Shown here: positions 11,524 through 31,082 of the stretch, one piece after another
How the letters are laid out: each line of letters starts with the position of its first letter
Numbering within the stretch: position 1 is the stretch's first letter
Sequence record: MT833283.1
Direction: 5' to 3' (one strand)
Origin: Escherichia coli phage vB_EcoS_Ace
DNA: 64,000 bases
Notes under the pieces: generated by a model
What the model was told of the DNA's origin: nothing
The model's database searches: none
The model's input: only the letters and a program-made list of their open reading frames with translations
Made by a program: the position numbers and the translations under genes

Positions 11524-11705
11524 TAAAGAAGATTTTTAAGGGTATCTGGAAAGGTCTAGTATGGTTTGTCAACCTAATCGGTATGATTACCATTTATTCT
11601 CTGTTCCTATCTGTTATGTGGGGTAAAGGTGAATTGAAGGTTCCGGTTCCTTTTACTGAGGAAGTTAAAGTCTGGACGTGGGATGCTACTGGTGGAAATA
11701 AGTAA
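11520..11705 (+). CDS. Hypothetical small membrane protein (61 aa)
   Basis: One hydrophobic segment (LVWFVNLIGMITIYSLFLSVMW); overlaps neighbours. Confidence 0.4.
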   Translation: MIKKIFKGIWKGLVWFVNLIGMITIYSLFLSVMWGKGELKVPVPFTEEVKVWTWDATGGNK

Positions 11706-12198
11706 TACTCCTGTGATTTTCCTGGATATTGATGGGGTGCTCAATTCGAGCATCTCTCACCATCATGCTCCAGACAGTGAAAAGCTGTTCTTTGGCAGTG
11801 ATTGGGTTTATAAGCCATTACTCCAGGCTTTTCAGAACTTTCTTAAACCCTCCCCAATAATGATTGTTGGGGTCTCTTCATGGTTTTCTGTACGAAATGA
11901 AATGGAGAACGTTCAGATTATGACCGGACTCGGTTTGATCGATCGTTTCCTTGGTACAACAGATTTTACTGGAGGTGGTTTATCTCGGGGTAATTCTGTT
12001 TTACGTTTCGTCGAAAAATATAAGCTCAAGCATTGGTGTGTCCTAGATGATGCTGGTGCTATGATGTACCAATTCCCTACTGTTATTGTAAATGGCAGGA
12101 CTGGAATAAACCTTCAAGATTTAAATGCTATCAGCTATATGCTGGAGTTTAGTCCAGATCTTGAAATGTGTAAGGCTCTTCAGAAACTTAAGGTGTAA
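11683..12198 (+). CDS. HAD-superfamily hydrolase-like protein
   Basis: 171 aa; motif I FLDIDGVLN near the N-terminus and a C-terminal VLDD acidic motif. Confidence 0.5.
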   Translation: MLLVEISNTPVIFLDIDGVLNSSISHHHAPDSEKLFFGSDWVYKPLLQAFQNFLKPSPIMIVGVSSWFSVRNEMENVQIMTGLGLIDRFLGTTDFTGGGLSRGNSVLRFVEKYKLKHWCVLDDAGAMMYQFPTVIVNGRTGINLQDLNAISYMLEFSPDLEMCKALQKLKV

Positions 12199-12200
12199 AT

Positions 12201-12629
12201 ATGTTCGATAATCTTTTCATGAAAGAGGTAAACCCTATGCTCCTCAACTTCTGGCGTTCTCTCCCTAATGGTATGTATAATGAAACCATCAATCTGCTTA
12301 AGATTTGGTGTGAGAATAACGATATCTTCCTATCCTTTAAAGGCCCACTAGAGGAAGCTCCATGTATTGGAGTTAGCGTGGATTTAGGTGAGGGAGTAGA
12401 AGAAATTGTAGACTGGAAAGAACTCGATGAAATGGGTCTGGTTTTTGCCTTGAACCATAAGCTGTTTATGCCTGCAAATCACCGTCTTATTGTAAACTAT
12501 CGCACTGGTGAAGCTCCTGCTTTCCAGGTAAATGAACGTGAGGGCTGGTCATATTCGCCCAAAGAAGTAAATGAGGGGATTCAGAAACTTCGTCGTTTCG
12601 GGTATATGATCCCAGGTTTAACTGCTTAA
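12201..12629 (+). CDS. Hypothetical protein, tandem paralog A (142 aa)
   Basis: Shares with the next ORF the blocks DW.EL..MGL..ALN, ..TGE.P and R.G..(I/V)PGL. Confidence 0.5.
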   Translation: MFDNLFMKEVNPMLLNFWRSLPNGMYNETINLLKIWCENNDIFLSFKGPLEEAPCIGVSVDLGEGVEEIVDWKELDEMGLVFALNHKLFMPANHRLIVNYRTGEAPAFQVNEREGWSYSPKEVNEGIQKLRRFGYMIPGLTA

Positions 12630-12638
12630 GGAGGCAGA

Positions 12639-13034
12639 ATGGAACAAGTATTTTGGCGTCAGATAGATCCTAGTTTGGTAGAGCGTGCTGAAGGGCTCCT
12701 TGCACGTTGGTTGGGGGTTGACAAGGTTAGTGTAACATTTCCGTTTACTTCTGTAACAGACCCTAGTGTAGGTGTCTTTGTGGACGAAGATGAAGATGAT
12801 GGTTGGGAAGCTGACTGGAATGAATTGTCCAGTATGGGCTTGATTGTTGCCCTCAACTTCTCTATATTCCATCCACGTGGCTTAGCCATTACACGTGACC
12901 CCGAAACTGGTGAATCCCCTTATCTTTTGCAAGTAGAAGATGATATTTGGGAGTACACCGAAGATATTCTCGAAGAAGCTAAAGGTCAATTAAATCGCAT
13001 TGGGATCTATGTTCCAGGCCTAAATGATGATTGA
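12639..13034 (+). CDS. Hypothetical protein, tandem paralog B (131 aa)
   Basis: Paralog of 12201-12629; GGAG RBS upstream. Confidence 0.5.
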   Translation: MEQVFWRQIDPSLVERAEGLLARWLGVDKVSVTFPFTSVTDPSVGVFVDEDEDDGWEADWNELSSMGLIVALNFSIFHPRGLAITRDPETGESPYLLQVEDDIWEYTEDILEEAKGQLNRIGIYVPGLNDD

Positions 13035-13059
13035 TTTTCATTAGTCCAATCCTGATTAC

Positions 13060-13086
13060 CGAGTCATTTTGGCTCGGTTTTCTCTG
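13060..13086 (+). terminator. Rho-independent terminator
   Basis: ACCGAGTC-ATTTT-GGCTCGGT hairpin followed by TTTTCTCT. Confidence 0.55.
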
Positions 13087-13125
13087 TGCTCAAAGACACT
13101 GATAGCACCTTCGGAAAAATTTTAC

Positions 13126-13154
13126 TTGCAGGATGCTCAAAATCTTGATATAAT
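13126..13154 (+). promoter_or_regulatory. Early promoter (TTGCAG-N17-TATAAT) with conserved leader
   Basis: TATAAT followed by ATTTATATTGAATTGAGAGAC leader resembling other early leaders; -35 is weaker. Confidence 0.45.
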
Positions 13155-13647
13155 ATTTATATTGAATTGAGAGACATTAGTAAAAATTGATTTTGCTAAT
13201 TTTTCTTGTTTACAATCCGCAATACGGAACAGTTAGGCTGCCCCATTAAGGGTTGTTTTAACTATTACTAGTGTTTATACTGCATTAGTTAATTATCAAT
13301 TAAGTGATCTGCGTACCCTGAATTCGGAAAGGTAAATCCAAACCGTGCATATTTAGCTCGTTATATAGGCAGAGCTTTATATGGGGGTGCGAACGAAAAG
13401 AGCAGCGAATGGTGACACGTCCAGTAGCCACCTACCAATAGGATAGTGAGGGCAATCAGAATAGGCTTAGCGGCCAATGACCTAGGTTCTGATCTGGATA
13501 AGAGTTAAGAGAGCGCAGCACTGAGGTATGATAACTTATTCATACTGCTTGATGATTAATGTTTGTGTAAATGGTAGTAATAGTTGTTCTATTCTTTTGA
13601 ATAGTCCTAAAGAAAGATATCCGAATAACCAACATAGGAGTATTGTT

Positions 13648-16437
13648 GTGTTCTCAATCCTACAAGGTCACGCAGGATTTTCCAGAGATAAAGCCACTGG
13701 CATCTGGAAAGAGATCAAAGTGGAAGATTACACCTTTGCAAAGCGATTCTCTAAAGAGCATCCAGAAGGTAAACCAGCTTCCATGCCCTTCAAATTTGAT
13801 GTACTTGAAGAACTTGACCCGCAAAACCTTGCTGAAATGTTACCTATCATGCGTCGTCTTACCAAAGACCCGCATATTGTAGCTATTCGTGGTAAATGTC
13901 TAGCTCCAAAAGATAATGTGCGTCGTACCAGAGGAAACTTTAACGTATCCAATCCTAGTCATATTATCGCTATGGACGTGGATGGTATTGTAGATACTGG
14001 TGGCTATGACAAGTTTAATCTTGTTGGCATGGCACGTCATATTATTAAGATGTTGAATAGTATTAGTGAGGATATGTTTCCTCTTGATGCAGGGTTTATT
14101 GCTCATGCATCGTCTTCGGCTGGATTAAAACCAGGTATCCGAATGCACTTAATGCTAGAATCTAATGTCAAGGTAACGCAGGGGCAATTAAAATTCTTAT
14201 TTACATCCATCAATGACAGTAGTAAGCAAAAGTATGGCTTTGATATTGCTGACTTAGCTTATTATTCTTCTGTTCAGCTTCACTATTTCGCAGATCCCTT
14301 ATTTGATGATGGTATAGTCGATCCGTTTAAAGCGGAGAATAAACCACGTCTTGTGTATGTTAAGGGTTCGAAAGTGAATCTACCCAATAACCTAGTTGAC
14401 TTTGAAACAACTAGAGGTGAGTTTAAAGAAGAATTCTACTCCTTACTTGACCAAATTAAAGGCAAGAAGGCTGCATCTGATAAAGTGGAAGAAACCATCA
14501 GCGAACTAGAAGAAGCTGAGGATGGGGTGTACCTGCGTATTATCCCAAAACTTTATCACAGAGCGTTAGAAGATGGTGTTGACTTTACGTGGTTAGAACG
14601 TGAGATTAAACCAGCTTTATCTGAATATATTGCAACTAAAGATAATAGTCGTAATATTCAAGATTACTTTAATAACGGTCGTAAGCAGGCTCTAAAAGCC
14701 TTTGTGAATAACTCCAAACGTGAGATTCCACCCAACTTAAAAGGTGTACCACTAAAGCGTCTGGACACAGATTCACCGCCAGAAGTTCCATACTTGAAGA
14801 TTAACATTGTACCCCCAAAAGGACATTTAACATTTGTTAAGGCAAGTCTTGGTACAGGTAAAACCACAGCAGTAACTAAGTGGCTAGATGCAGGTGTTCT
14901 TCCAGGAAACTTTATTGCAATCACGAATACTAGGGCACTTGTATCTTCAAACGCGAAGAAATTCGGTGCTGGTCAGTATGATAAGTCAGTTGATATGCTG
15001 AACTTCAAACGTGGTGCTATTGATCGTATGTCTTCAACTATTCACTCTATCCATAAGTTCAAGAGCTTTGTGGGTCAGATTGATACGATCTTTATTGATG
15101 AATGTGACGCAGTAATGAATGATCTGTTATTCGCCCCGGTTGTTAAAAACCGTCGTGAATGTATTCAGGTTCTTCGCGATATTCTTATTACTGCAAAAAC
15201 GGTTATCTTATCTGATGGTGATATCAGTGCAGAAACGATTGAAGCCTATGGTTCTTTGATTGATTTTGATAAACCGGTCGCGTTCTATAATCATCACCGT
15301 AAAATGCTGGCAAAAGCTCATGCATATGAGTTCCCTGATGAATCCAGTATTTGGGTCGCACTCCAGACTTCACTAGAGATGGGGGAGAAATCAATCCTAG
15401 TATCTGACTGTGGGCCAGATGAACTGAATGAAAAGGGGATGGCGTTACGTCGTAACACTGGTGCGTTAGTTAAAGAAATTCACTCAAACTCTACGTCTGA
15501 TGTAGATATCCGACGTATTCTGGATTACACTACTAATGAGCTAATTGATCAACAGATTGATTGTTTGTTATGTAGTCCATCTGTAACGAGTGGCGTTGAC
15601 TTTAACTATTTTGATAACGTATTTGTTATCACTAGAACCTCAAACCAAGCGCCAAACATGCGTTTTCAAGCAATCAGGCGCGACCGTGGTGCTCAGAACA
15701 TTTATTATTTTATTGATAAATCTACGAGTGGATTTTCTGCGGGTTCCGAGCAATATAATATTGACGAAGGTTGGATTGAGTTAGCCCAACAACTGTACGC
15801 ACGTCGTCGTGAGCTGGAATCTAGAAACTATACTAGTACTTTGCGTTATTATCTGCTTGATCAGGGTGCAACTATCGATATTTTCAGCGAAAGCTGGGGA
15901 ACTATCGAAGGTGCAGGAAAAGAGTATACAGAAGAGCGAATCAAAGCTATTTTGCACTCAACTCCTGAATATTGTGCACCACGTCATGCAGATGCCTATG
16001 AAGCCAAGTTACTTCTGGTTCGCTATTATCATCTGGATTCTATTAAAGATGTAACAGTGGAACACGTTGAACAGTATATCAAGGATAAACCAAACGATAG
16101 AGCTGCATTCTTCCATAAGATGCACGACATGTTCTGGGAAGATATTAAAAAGTGTTCAAACGTAACAATCAAACCGTTTATCGAAGCTCTTAAGAATAAG
16201 AAGAAGGATTTCTTCCTTAAGACAGGTCAGAGCGCTAACCCAAAATATGCTCGTATGTATCTTGGCATGATGGGTATCGGTAAAGATCTGGATACGGAAA
16301 AGATTGTGGACTGGTACAGAACTTACTGTAAGATCGAATGTATGCCGATTCCAGTTAAGTTTATGACAGATGAAGAACGTCAGATGCATGAGGAAGCTCT
16401 TGCTGAATTGGGGGCTAGAAATGACAGCGAAGAATAA
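13648..16437 (+). CDS. Putative replication origin-binding / helicase-like ATPase
   Basis: Walker A GTGKTT and DExD-type IFIDECD; probable GTG start at 13648 with AGGAG RBS 7 nt upstream (track ORF begins at 13528 without RBS). Confidence 0.6.
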   Translation: MFSILQGHAGFSRDKATGIWKEIKVEDYTFAKRFSKEHPEGKPASMPFKFDVLEELDPQNLAEMLPIMRRLTKDPHIVAIRGKCLAPKDNVRRTRGNFNVSNPSHIIAMDVDGIVDTGGYDKFNLVGMARHIIKMLNSISEDMFPLDAGFIAHASSSAGLKPGIRMHLMLESNVKVTQGQLKFLFTSINDSSKQKYGFDIADLAYYSSVQLHYFADPLFDDGIVDPFKAENKPRLVYVKGSKVNLPNNLVDFETTRGEFKEEFYSLLDQIKGKKAASDKVEETISELEEAEDGVYLRIIPKLYHRALEDGVDFTWLEREIKPALSEYIATKDNSRNIQDYFNNGRKQALKAFVNNSKREIPPNLKGVPLKRLDTDSPPEVPYLKINIVPPKGHLTFVKASLGTGKTTAVTKWLDAGVLPGNFIAITNTRALVSSNAKKFGAGQYDKSVDMLNFKRGAIDRMSSTIHSIHKFKSFVGQIDTIFIDECDAVMNDLLFAPVVKNRRECIQVLRDILITAKTVILSDGDISAETIEAYGSLIDFDKPVAFYNHHRKMLAKAHAYEFPDESSIWVALQTSLEMGEKSILVSDCGPDELNEKGMALRRNTGALVKEIHSNSTSDVDIRRILDYTTNELIDQQIDCLLCSPSVTSGVDFNYFDNVFVITRTSNQAPNMRFQAIRRDRGAQNIYYFIDKSTSGFSAGSEQYNIDEGWIELAQQLYARRRELESRNYTSTLRYYLLDQGATIDIFSESWGTIEGAGKEYTEERIKAILHSTPEYCAPRHADAYEAKLLLVRYYHLDSIKDVTVEHVEQYIKDKPNDRAAFFHKMHDMFWEDIKKCSNVTIKPFIEALKNKKKDFFLKTGQSANPKYARMYLGMMGIGKDLDTEKIVDWYRTYCKIECMPIPVKFMTDEERQMHEEALAELGARNDSEE

Positions 16438-30104: not shown

Positions 30105-31082
30105 ATGAGAATACTATTTAGTGCTGATCATCATATCAAATTAGGACAAGATAAAGTTCCAAAGGAATGGCAGAAGCGTCGCTTCCTGATGCTAGGAGAA
30201 CGGTTAAATGACATATTCCATAATCATAACTGTGATCTGCATATTGCTGGTGGTGATATTCTTGATGTTGCCGACCCATCGTCGGAAGAAATAGAACTTC
30301 TTGAACAGTTCATGTCAAGACTTGACCATTCAGGCAAGATCTTCACTGGGAACCATGAAATGTTAACTAAAACTATTTCATGTCTGTATCATTATGCAGG
30401 AGTTATTAATAAAGTAACAAACGGAAATTGGGAAGTCATTACTAAACCATATCGTTCTCCTGAATTTGATATTATCCCTTATGATGAAATCCACAAACCA
30501 AAGTGGAAACCATCTGAGTCAAAACTATGTTTCACGCATGTTCGTGGTGAAATCCCTCCACATGTAAAACCAGAGATTGATCTAACGAGGTATAACTGTT
30601 ATGACACTGTAATTGCTGGCGATTTACATTCTTATACTAATAGTCAAACTGTTGGTTCTACTAGACTTCTTTATCCAGGATCTCCATTAACTACATCGTT
30701 CCATAGAGAACGAACAAAAGGTACAAATGGTTGTTTTATCATTGATACCGACACATTAAAAGTAGAATGGATTGAACTTGGTGACTTACCACAACTGATT
30801 CGTAAAACAATCGGAGTTGGTGAGGAAATGGAGCCTAGTGACTATGACCGTGTAATTTATGAAGTCACTGGTGACGTCGTTCAGTTAAAGTCTATTAAAG
30901 ATTCTGATCTCTTAGATAAAAAGATTAACCATCGAGTTACTAAAGATGCTAAGTTAAATCTTGTTGATCTTGATATGTTAGGCGAGCTTGAGCTTTACTT
31001 CCGTGAAGTTGAAAAGCTGCCTCAAGACGACATTGATAGAATCTTGGCTAGAGCTGCTAAATATGTCAAAGATTATAATTAA
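30105..31082 (+). CDS. SbcD/Mre11-like nuclease (calcineurin-like phosphoesterase)
   Basis: 325 aa; DHH near the N-terminus, GGDILD, GNHE and later His motifs. Confidence 0.75.
   Translation: MRILFSADHHIKLGQDKVPKEWQKRRFLMLGERLNDIFHNHNCDLHIAGGDILDVADPSSEEIELLEQFMSRLDHSGKIFTGNHEMLTKTISCLYHYAGVINKVTNGNWEVITKPYRSPEFDIIPYDEIHKPKWKPSESKLCFTHVRGEIPPHVKPEIDLTRYNCYDTVIAGDLHSYTNSQTVGSTRLLYPGSPLTTSFHRERTKGTNGCFIIDTDTLKVEWIELGDLPQLIRKTIGVGEEMEPSDYDRVIYEVTGDVVQLKSIKDSDLLDKKINHRVTKDAKLNLVDLDMLGELELYFREVEKLPQDDIDRILARAAKYVKDYN

Follow-up and report, generated by a model that had tools for sequence, protein, structure and literature searches.

A large structured RNA upstream of the D2 helicase gene of T5-like phages, a candidate element of replication initiation

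This study concerns the interval 13035-13647 of a 64,000-nucleotide (nt) stretch of DNA from Escherichia coli phage vB_EcoS_Ace (sequence record MT833283.1; the whole stretch is referred to as the window, and positions are numbered along it), which lies directly upstream of the gene for the D2 helicase. Comparative analysis identifies the interval as the template of a promoter-driven plus-strand structure of many helices, predicted to be ~430 nt long. Compensatory changes support at least 12 of these helices across 11 lineages. The RNA is seen to consist of two parts: a near-invariant 5' domain (P1-P2) and a core of ~330 nt (P5-P11) closed by the long-range helices P3/P4. The pattern of sequence divergence further establishes that the core type and the N-terminal part of D2 are inherited together as a single block, and that the flanking DNA recombines freely. 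We regard the region as the best current candidate for the replication start site of T5, or for its control element. T5 is a classical model phage. Its replication has been described as little studied, in papers that place no origin (PMC3632103, PMC10055335).

The interval is 99% identical to that of Salmonella phage beppo and 92% identical to that of T5 (AY587007 58998-59614), and it matches 537 phage records. Judged by these matches, the window is from a T5-like phage and the downstream gene is that of the D2 helicase ("obp"). The T5 record annotates just two features in the homologous interval, a putative terminator and the putative early promoter T5P32, with "obp" following from 59615. A sequence-only reading of the window had predicted a terminator near 13060, an early promoter at 13126-13154 and a GTG start at 13648 for an origin-binding-like gene, and all three coincide with the T5 annotation (Table 1). 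The GTG start also agrees with the N-terminus MFSIL, which is common to the D2 family. An in-frame ATG at 13528, 40 codons 5' of the GTG, lets open reading frame (ORF) finders lengthen D2 to 969 residues. We rejected this start: indels of 1 and 3 nt in close relatives break the extension, and the GTG is therefore taken as the start of D2, as in T5.

Transcription would begin near 13161. The promoter pattern TTGCA-N17/18-TATAAT is present at 31 of 33 IMG/VR loci that encode a D2 homologue. Its distance from D2 is 490-502 nt in most of these loci, ~600-620 nt in the four loci that carry insertions or a duplication, and 618-622 nt in the two Providencia phage loci; in Pectobacterium phage My1 it is 477 nt. 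In Salmonella phage S132 (L118 340-792), the terminator and P1 are separated by a free-standing gene for an HNH homing endonuclease. The insert replaces window positions 13081-13148, so that the native promoter is lost, and it brings its own promoter, TTTGCAAGGGAGTATTATTTTATAGTATAAT, at an equal distance from P1. Transcription into the element has therefore been kept despite replacement of the upstream DNA. The same substitute promoter occurs at L009, L020, L029, L031, L085 and L095 (here the promoter alone was compared), and at L029 promoter and P1 are present as a tandem copy.

The sequence-only reading had offered a structured leader as one possibility, to be checked by RNA folding and covariance analysis across T5-like genomes, and on this point it was right. 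The interval contains a 21-nt inverted repeat, I1 (13260-13280 with 13565-13585), that encloses 284 nt. The folding z-score is -3.7, and the comparative evidence is much stronger. T5-like phages have two types of core, A and B. In type-B phages (L013-L023 and others) the length of the region is kept, but BLAST aligns it to the window only over 13035-13317 and 13554-13647. Side-by-side inspection of type B and the window places the helices at matching positions with different sequences. A naive MAFFT alignment of all lineages was too poor for most helices; we therefore used within-type alignments, a helix table compiled by hand and iterated covariance models. For 15 type-A sequences, RNAalifold gave 153 pairs, of which six had changed on both sides and ten showed one-sided G.U transitions; 99.9% of cells were paired, and controls with slid strands yielded 0-1 compensatory pairs. 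Twelve type-B sequences added six further compensatory pairs.

The hand table covers 12 helices in 11 lineages (the window, T5, three type-B variants, DU_PP_V, My1, Sugarland, two Providencia phages and Proteus phage RP7). In 558 of 566 cells the bases pair, compared with 38-44% after the 3' partner is slid by 1-3 nt, and 55 of 74 positions have pair types that differ on both sides. The 5' strands pair with the 3' strand of their own lineage in 98% of cases and with those of other lineages in 58%. These figures are biased upward because the helices were picked by eye. Less biased is the outcome of the naive MAFFT alignment with RNAalifold, which on its own recovers P3 and P10.

Covariance model R2 was seeded from type B only and iterated once, with T5, L033 and DU_PP_V joining the seed after round one. 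It detects PSTCR5, My1 and Sugarland, all outside the seed, and has no match beyond the D2 leader at E<=1 in 96 kb. In the R2 alignment (A9), compensatory changes are seen at 26 of 28 pairs; its covariation score is 0.70 versus 0.22 in shuffled alignments (none of 500 shuffles reaches 0.70). Cells within helices contain 42 G.U against two A.C combinations; the folded strand is therefore the plus strand, the one transcribed from the promoter. R2 matches neither the Proteus element nor those Vibrio elements that were searched (L037, L038, L115, L117), and their homology is by motif or position only. A second match to the model of the three-way junction, at window 30781-30868 (plus strand; 18.8 bits, E ~0.03), lies inside an ORF of 325 codons (30105-31082) and is probably due to chance. 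Searching IMG/VR with the pattern ACRGAACAGTNNGGCTGC returned T5-like genomes and chance matches in coding sequence, and did not find the element beyond this phage family.

Table 1. Positions of features in and around the element; the last column gives the basis of each assignment.
Feature	Position	Strand	Basis
Intrinsic terminator of upstream operon; 9-bp stem and T-run, hairpin ACCGAGTCATTTTGGCTCGGT	13058-13078	+	T5 annotation at the corresponding position
Early sigma-70 promoter TTGCAG-17 nt-TATAAT with TG-extended -10 (T5P32)	13126-13154	+	T5 annotation, conservation
P1, 5' hairpin GAGAGA.AUUAGUAAAA / UUUUGCUAAU.UUUCUU	13169-13207	+	Covaries across DU_PP_V, My1, Providencia, Sugarland
P2 domain with near-invariant motif AUACGGAACAGUUAGGCUGCCCCAU	13212-13256	+	Inner stem GG/CC becomes AG/CU in Sugarland
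P3/P4 long-range helices, 5' strands, closing the core	13259-13299	+	Inverted repeat I1, covariation
P5 5' strand CUGCGU (13309-13314) and P6 5' strand ACCCU (13315-13319)	13309-13319	+	Covariation
P6b hairpin AGCUC / GAGCU, purine-rich semi-conserved loop	13355-13376	+	Hand helix table
P6 3' strand GGGGU	13384-13388	+	Hand helix table
P8-P9-P10 three-way junction, heart of the GC-rich island	13417-13501	+	Covariance models R1 and R2
P10a	13455-13461 with 13487-13493	+	
Invariant hairpin GGCU-UAGC-GGCC, within the three-way junction	13464-13475	+	
P5 3' strand GCGCAG	13513-13518	+	Covariation
P11 hairpin GGUAUGA / UCAUACU	13525-13546	+	Within-type alignments, hand table
P4/P3 3' strands: closing helix, right-hand edge of the swappable core	13549-13586	+	Inverted repeat, covariation
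P12 hairpin CUAUUC-UUUU-GAAUAG	13589-13604	+	Alignments, hand table
Shine-Dalgarno AGGAG (13636-13640) and GTG start of D2	13636-13650	+	T5 annotation
D2 codons 1 to ~530 (N-terminal domain and start of helicase core), one haplotype block with the RNA core type	13648-15240	+	

Covariation is readily seen in individual helices. One position of P3/P4 is A-U in the window, G.U in T5 and G-C in type B, and P5 changes from CUGCGU/GCGCAG to CUGUGU/GCACAG and CUACAU/GUGUAG. Type B, My1 and Sugarland have, in place of P11, a hairpin whose loop reads GUUGCCAC. P12 is not followed by a U-tract and is for this reason not a terminator. We found no terminator within the leader or after P12; the RNA in T5-like phages, at least initially, is therefore the 5' part of the D2 mRNA. 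After inspection by eye we rejected two sets of additional pairings. In T5-like phages, GCRAUAC (P2) could form 7 bp with GUAUUGU 3' of the Shine-Dalgarno sequence, a pairing that is not kept in DU_PP_V, My1 and Sugarland, and the tertiary pairings of the GUUGCCACC loop with GGUGG of P6b, and of the P2b loop with the internal loop of P10, show no consistent covariation. Three loci (L016, L023, L030) contain an insertion of ~98 nt between P1 and P2 (corresponding to window 13207/13208), ~430-530 nt upstream of D2. It is flanked on both sides by an 8-bp direct repeat, TTTTTCTT, and contains a hairpin of its own, GATTTACGG...CCTGTAAAT. Its appearance is that of a small mobile insertion, or of an expansion segment that a linker of the RNA tolerates.

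The sequence-only reading had also called the region of ~600 bp non-coding and had noted that 13380-13520 is GC-rich. The G+C content of this stretch is 50.4% (98th percentile of the window) compared with 30-32% in the flanks, and the island corresponds to the P6-P10 portion of the core. We considered the stretches 13155-13258 and 13587-13647 (30-32% G+C) as AT-rich unwinding elements; both are also conserved RNA or ribosome-binding region. ORFs of 25-73 codons are found on both strands of the interval, and their position, strand and frame differ between the eight lineages compared. None is kept in frame among these relatives, and indels of 1 and 3 nt occur between close ones; the conserved, translated ORF that would have spoken against the sequence-only reading is thus absent. 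In several GenBank records the leader is covered by an annotated "replication origin binding protein" or by hypothetical proteins, and ORFs of 30-56 codons are annotated as hypothetical within the D2 leaders at L037 1065-1235 (Athena gp71), L039 721-1345 (D153) and L114 736-1441 (RP7). The small ORFs annotated on either strand in the leaders of Vibrio and Proteus phages are probably spurious calls in structured RNA. ARAGORN found no tRNA or tmRNA in the interval. A scan of window 12500-14200 with Rfam 15 (E<=10) gave three matches of 12-21 bits, outside or irrelevant to the element, and a scan of eight distant loci gave nothing within it. As far as these searches reach, the RNA is a new family without an Rfam match. 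None of the annotation tables inspected, including that of T5, lists an RNA gene here. The literature on the T5 origin, on transcription or on RNA yielded no description of it, and neither a position for the T5 origin nor transcriptome data for this region; most subscription journals were not covered, and an earlier mention is possible.

The two parts of the RNA evolve differently. From the -10 box through P1 and P2 (13133-13232), the window, T5 and type B share 96-100% identity, more than the flanking genes do (3-kb alignment). In the core (13281-13570), the window and T5 are 80-98% identical, and identity between types is 30-54%; the core types, as aligned here, are deeply divergent yet have the same fold. 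The window itself is a recombinant. Its DUF7415 genes (12298-12697) are 90-100% identical to those of type-B phage L013, but its RNA core (13281-13570) and D2 are of the T5 type. The core has therefore been exchanged by recombination, with breakpoints in the P3 strands, and these alignments establish sub-kilobase mosaicism at the locus.

To quantify type differentiation we subtracted between-type from within-type identity in 35 T5-like genomes (17 type A, 18 type B). The measure is zero up to 13234 and 0.15-0.76 through the core. Over D2 codons 1 to ~530 it is 0.01-0.18, with a second peak of 0.35 at 14761-14820, and beyond 15300 it is zero again. D2 residues ~372-431 occur as two alleles, DSPPEVPYLKINIVPPKGH in type A and NSLETDNFLKLNTVPPEGY in type B, and in all T5-like genomes examined the allele agrees with the core type.

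T5-like phages of Vibrio have an ORF-poor leader of 670-1100 nt before D2, with a conserved promoter-proximal 5' domain, covarying hairpins and cores that cannot be aligned. The 5' domain is 98% identical across genera (Athena versus pVp-1), compared with 67-93% in the flanks. Athena and Pontus are 95-100% identical over 1.4 kb upstream and again from D2 nucleotide 1209 onwards. In the stretch in between, the cores cannot be aligned, and identity over D2 codons 1 to ~400 is just 61-84%; the swapped block is therefore the core together with the D2 N-terminal domain. It stops where the helicase domain begins (the Walker A motif of T5 D2 is at residues 399-406). On this comparison, Athena and Pontus represent an independent replication of the co-inheritance of core and D2 N-terminus. 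Since R2 fails to detect the Vibrio RNAs, their likeness to the T5 element is positional and behavioural, not proven homology. The Pontus core (L115/L119) contains the hairpin CCCCA-UACGGAAC-UUGGGG, whose loop repeats the 9-nt string AUACGGAAC that is invariant in the T5 P2 domain, and hairpins in the cores of Pontus and pVp-1 (L117/L121) covary (GAGUAUAG/CUAUAUUC versus GUCUAUGG/CUAUAGAC). These hairpins may hint at distant homology of the Vibrio and enterobacterial elements.

The version in Proteus phages measures 770 nt, and in it the UAGC hairpin appears in covaried form (GCCU/GGGU). A perfect-consensus promoter is located just before D2, between element and gene. Identity to RP7 over this stretch is 98% or more in all ten Proteus phage records.

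The gene downstream of the element had been described from the sequence as origin-binding-like, a description that fits D2 well. Wong et al. 2013 (PMC3632103) described D2 as a bipolar superfamily 2 helicase and suggested a role for it in the initiation of replication. Its helicase half matches the Pfam family Herpes_ori_bp and solved structures of herpesvirus UL9. It also matches the NCBIfam family CyRepA1 with E=1.6e-35 and 123 bits, below the curated cut-off of 200 bits, and only the helicase half does so. Matches were obtained on 60 plasmids, mostly cyanobacterial, and most of the matches listed are on genes annotated as CyRepA1-family replication proteins. By these profile and sequence matches, the D2 helicase domain is shown to be homologous to replication initiators. 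The N-terminal 390 residues have no family match in Pfam, NCBIfam and PDB profile searches. AlphaFold, run on this domain as a single sequence, gave an unusable model (predicted local distance difference test, pLDDT, 36), and a homologue search returned two fragments only. Nine residues, D110, D112, S155, S157, G159, G163, R165, H167 and D202 (window 13975-14253), are invariant in nine D2 proteins of Demerecviridae that are 28-78% identical. These residues are suggestive of catalytic motifs I-III of the archaeo-eukaryotic primases (AEPs; primase-polymerases), which they may resemble. D2 is named DNA primase in several database records.

How might the element act? We tentatively favour, as possible rather than probable, a transcript-dependent and type-specific replication origin or D2 loading site. 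Three considerations lead us to it: phage and plasmid origins as a rule have initiator-site modules that are swapped together, the relatives of D2 are initiators, and the closest homologous system, plasmid pSYSA, has exactly this gene order. The element would be the cis-acting partner of D2. Transcription from the early promoter would produce a structured RNA of ~430 nt as the 5' part of the D2 transcript and would open the DNA, yielding the folded RNA or baring the equivalent displaced strand. The N-terminal domain of the cognate D2 would recognise the core, and replication would start beside the D2 gene in the manner of ColE1 RNA II or of the pSYSA ssr7036/asRNA1-CyRepA1 replicon. We infer from the co-inheritance that core and D2 N-terminal domain interact; the interaction would concern replication initiation rather than D2 expression, and the active form would be RNA rather than plus-strand DNA.

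Several features of the locus are those of an origin. The element is directly 5' of the gene for a UL9/CyRepA1-like protein, as an origin adjoins the gene of its cognate initiator; the core co-varies with the N-terminal half of D2 in T5-like phages and in Athena/Pontus, as a site tracks the specificity domain of its initiator; and a promoter hundreds of nucleotides upstream drives a structured transcript towards D2, as in the transcript-primed origins of the ColE1/pSYSA type. First-round T5 replication may start near the centre of the genome; the T5 interval at 59.0-59.6 kb is at 48.5-49%.

Other observations weigh against an origin. The interval has no iterons or significant direct repeats, only short two-copy repeats at chance level, and no antisense promoter is found on the minus strand within 13155-13647. 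There is no switch of GC skew at the locus, the skew being positive from ~8 kb to ~34 kb, although this is a weak test that transcription direction may confound. The sign changes in the 64-kb window are near 8 kb (negative to positive) and near 34 kb (positive to negative), and may reflect the direction of transcription. A fold of 12 helices exceeds the needs of a simple R-loop origin. The element is missing at L090, a distant D2 homologue from a metagenome (52% identity) whose upstream region is just short and AT-rich. Mere physical linkage could account for the co-inheritance of the core and the adjacent N-terminal half of D2. Finally, the editing bias of recombitrons has suggested that T5 replication is dominantly unidirectional from one end (PMC10055335). 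The sequence-only reading had listed a replication origin among its candidates. This proposal gains indirect support that the sequence alone could not offer: in two independent clades the core co-segregates with the N-terminal half of D2, and D2 is related to CyRepA1 proteins, whose origin is an upstream transcribed RNA locus. The origin itself stays a candidate; iterons and a skew switch are missing.

A more specific version of the origin proposal is conceivable but doubtful. A T5-like origin would then have as its specificity determinant a folded transcript or displaced strand of ~330 nt that is read by the primase-like N-terminal domain of D2, and core and domain would form a portable "replication identity" cassette, exchanged horizontally between near-identical phages across Demerecviridae.

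It is somewhat unlikely, in our judgement, that the RNA is instead an autoregulatory 5' leader, bound by the D2 N-terminal domain or by another phage or host factor so as to set the translation, stability or timing of the D2 mRNA, with the origin elsewhere. In T5-like phages the RNA is physically the 5' untranslated region of D2, with no terminator or promoter in between, and its co-inheritance with the D2 N-terminal domain would suit an RNA-protein pair equally well. Textbook knowledge adds that 5' hairpins of the kind of P1 classically stabilise mRNAs, and that phage replication proteins, for example T4 gp32 and gp43, are often autoregulated via their leaders. However, no expression platform is conserved: the predicted accessibility of the Shine-Dalgarno sequence ranges from 0.01 to 1.0, and its local partners differ by lineage. 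Sequestration of the Shine-Dalgarno sequence was rejected as a mechanism because the pairing is inconsistent between lineages. The core ends at least 60 nt before the Shine-Dalgarno sequence, and far more in Providencia and Proteus phages, and the Proteus promoter between element and D2 would bypass a purely cis-acting regulator. Known operators are also much smaller (20-40 nt, not ~430 nt).

The separate promoters for element and D2 in Proteus phages would suit an independent, trans-acting non-coding RNA that is processed from the leader, for instance after P12, and serves as a decoy, scaffold or anti-defence RNA, with the divergence of the core reflecting an arms race. We consider this unlikely. 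The size and helix count do resemble those of large phage-associated non-coding RNAs, the core has been replaced like a cassette between near-identical phages in two clades, and the AU-rich unstructured stretch after P12 would be a plausible entry site for RNase E. A small RNA was also among the candidates of the sequence-only reading. Yet no terminator or defined 3' end is seen. In the T5-like phages that have it, the element is always directly upstream of D2 in the same orientation and nowhere else, and the type of the core is linked to D2 and to no other gene.

A role as a signal in plus-strand DNA is improbable. The hairpins would then form a single-strand initiation or primosome-assembly site in single-stranded DNA, read by the suspected AEP-like N-terminus of D2, and the RNA would be a by-product of a promoter that opens the duplex. 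A model is provided by RepB', which recognises ssiA/ssiB in RSF1010. G.T wobble pairs are tolerated in single-stranded DNA, so the strand asymmetry is compatible with such a site. So are the presumed primase motifs of the invariant residues and the database name of D2, although the profile searches and the AlphaFold model leave a primase fold unsupported. CyRepA1 has likewise been described as a primase and helicase (PMC9978351). Helices that span ~330 nt and a three-way junction are, however, typical of RNA, known ssi sites measure 40-150 nt, and a promoter has been kept ahead of the element in the related lineages examined. That the interval is a decaying gene remnant or recombination scar that just looks structured is scarcely credible: short ORFs on both strands are annotated as hypothetical in some records, but ORF conservation is absent, the helix positions carry the compensatory changes counted above and the 5' domain is better conserved than the flanking genes.

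Upstream of the terminator, the window encodes three genes at 11683-13031, a protein with a HAD_SAK_2 domain and two tandem paralogous DUF7415 proteins. HAD_SAK_2 is the HAD domain of "Swiss Army Knife" RNA-repair proteins. In T5, a Sir2-like gene directly precedes the homologues of these three genes.

Whatever its role, the element turns an unannotated gap into a delimited large structured RNA, of a size class that is rare in bacteria and phages. If it is an origin, it would provide a phage example of an origin that depends on a structured transcript and has protein-matched specificity, and it would explain why most of the Demerecviridae examined have a large ORF-poor leader ahead of D2. Should it prove to be a regulator or trans-acting RNA instead, it still represents a new RNA family, with an unusual pattern of an invariant 5' domain and a cassette-swapped core. 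Many GenBank records are mis-annotated at this locus, with spurious small ORFs in the leader or with D2 extended to the upstream ATG.

We compared the element with known systems; except for pSYSA and the first three RNAs below, the likenesses are to textbook descriptions. Like GOLLD, ROOL and HEARO, the element is longer than 300 nt, has many helices and is carried by phages, and like the c4 and P4 CI immunity RNAs, which are processed from leaders and exist as hetero-immune alleles, it comes in types. Unlike all of these, it is always found upstream of D2, and it gave no covariance-model match to them at E<=10. The rep-mRNA leaders of IncI-alpha, IncB and IncFII plasmids share with it a structured leader of several hundred nucleotides 5' of an initiator gene, and a variation in type, which in the plasmids is the incompatibility type; their action involves an antisense RNA, a leader peptide and a pseudoknot that forms at the ribosome-binding site, and no sign of these three is detectable in the T5-like leader. 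In the lambdoid phages, the type-specific N-terminal half of the initiator O is swapped together with the adjacent cognate site, and the C-terminal half is interchangeable. This parallels the block described here, but lambda ori consists of double-stranded DNA iterons inside the O gene, whereas the T5-like element has no repeats and is under selection for base pairing in a single strand.

T4 ori(uvsY) and ori(34) and the T7 primary origin are examples of a promoter of a virulent coliphage whose transcript serves at an origin. These R-loop origins need just a promoter and a DNA unwinding element of ~50 bp, and no conserved RNA fold is known in them. ColE1 RNA II is closer in kind, being a structured transcript of several hundred nucleotides from a promoter upstream of initiation, whose folding decides whether replication starts. 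ColE1 has an antisense partner, RNA I, which the T5-like leader does not show, and it needs no plasmid initiator protein, whereas the T5-like element has the gene for a type-matched initiator helicase next door.

The closest parallel is pSYSA of Synechocystis 6803, in which the transcribed ssr7036/asRNA1 locus and CyRepA1 (Slr7037) form the minimal replicon, whose replication is likely primed by the upstream mRNA (PMC9978351). The two systems differ in that pSYSA has a small ORF and an abundant antisense RNA, whereas the T5-like leader shows neither an antisense promoter nor a leader ORF; the RNA loci have no sequence similarity, the N-terminal domains are not aligned by BLAST, and D2 scores 123 bits against the CyRepA1 cut-off of 200. 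CyRepA1 is a protein of 958 residues with "primase and helicase domains" that needs the ssr7036/asRNA1 locus immediately upstream (PMC9978351). What the systems have in common is a replication protein of ~930-960 residues with a D2-homologous helicase domain, encoded directly downstream of a heavily transcribed RNA locus.

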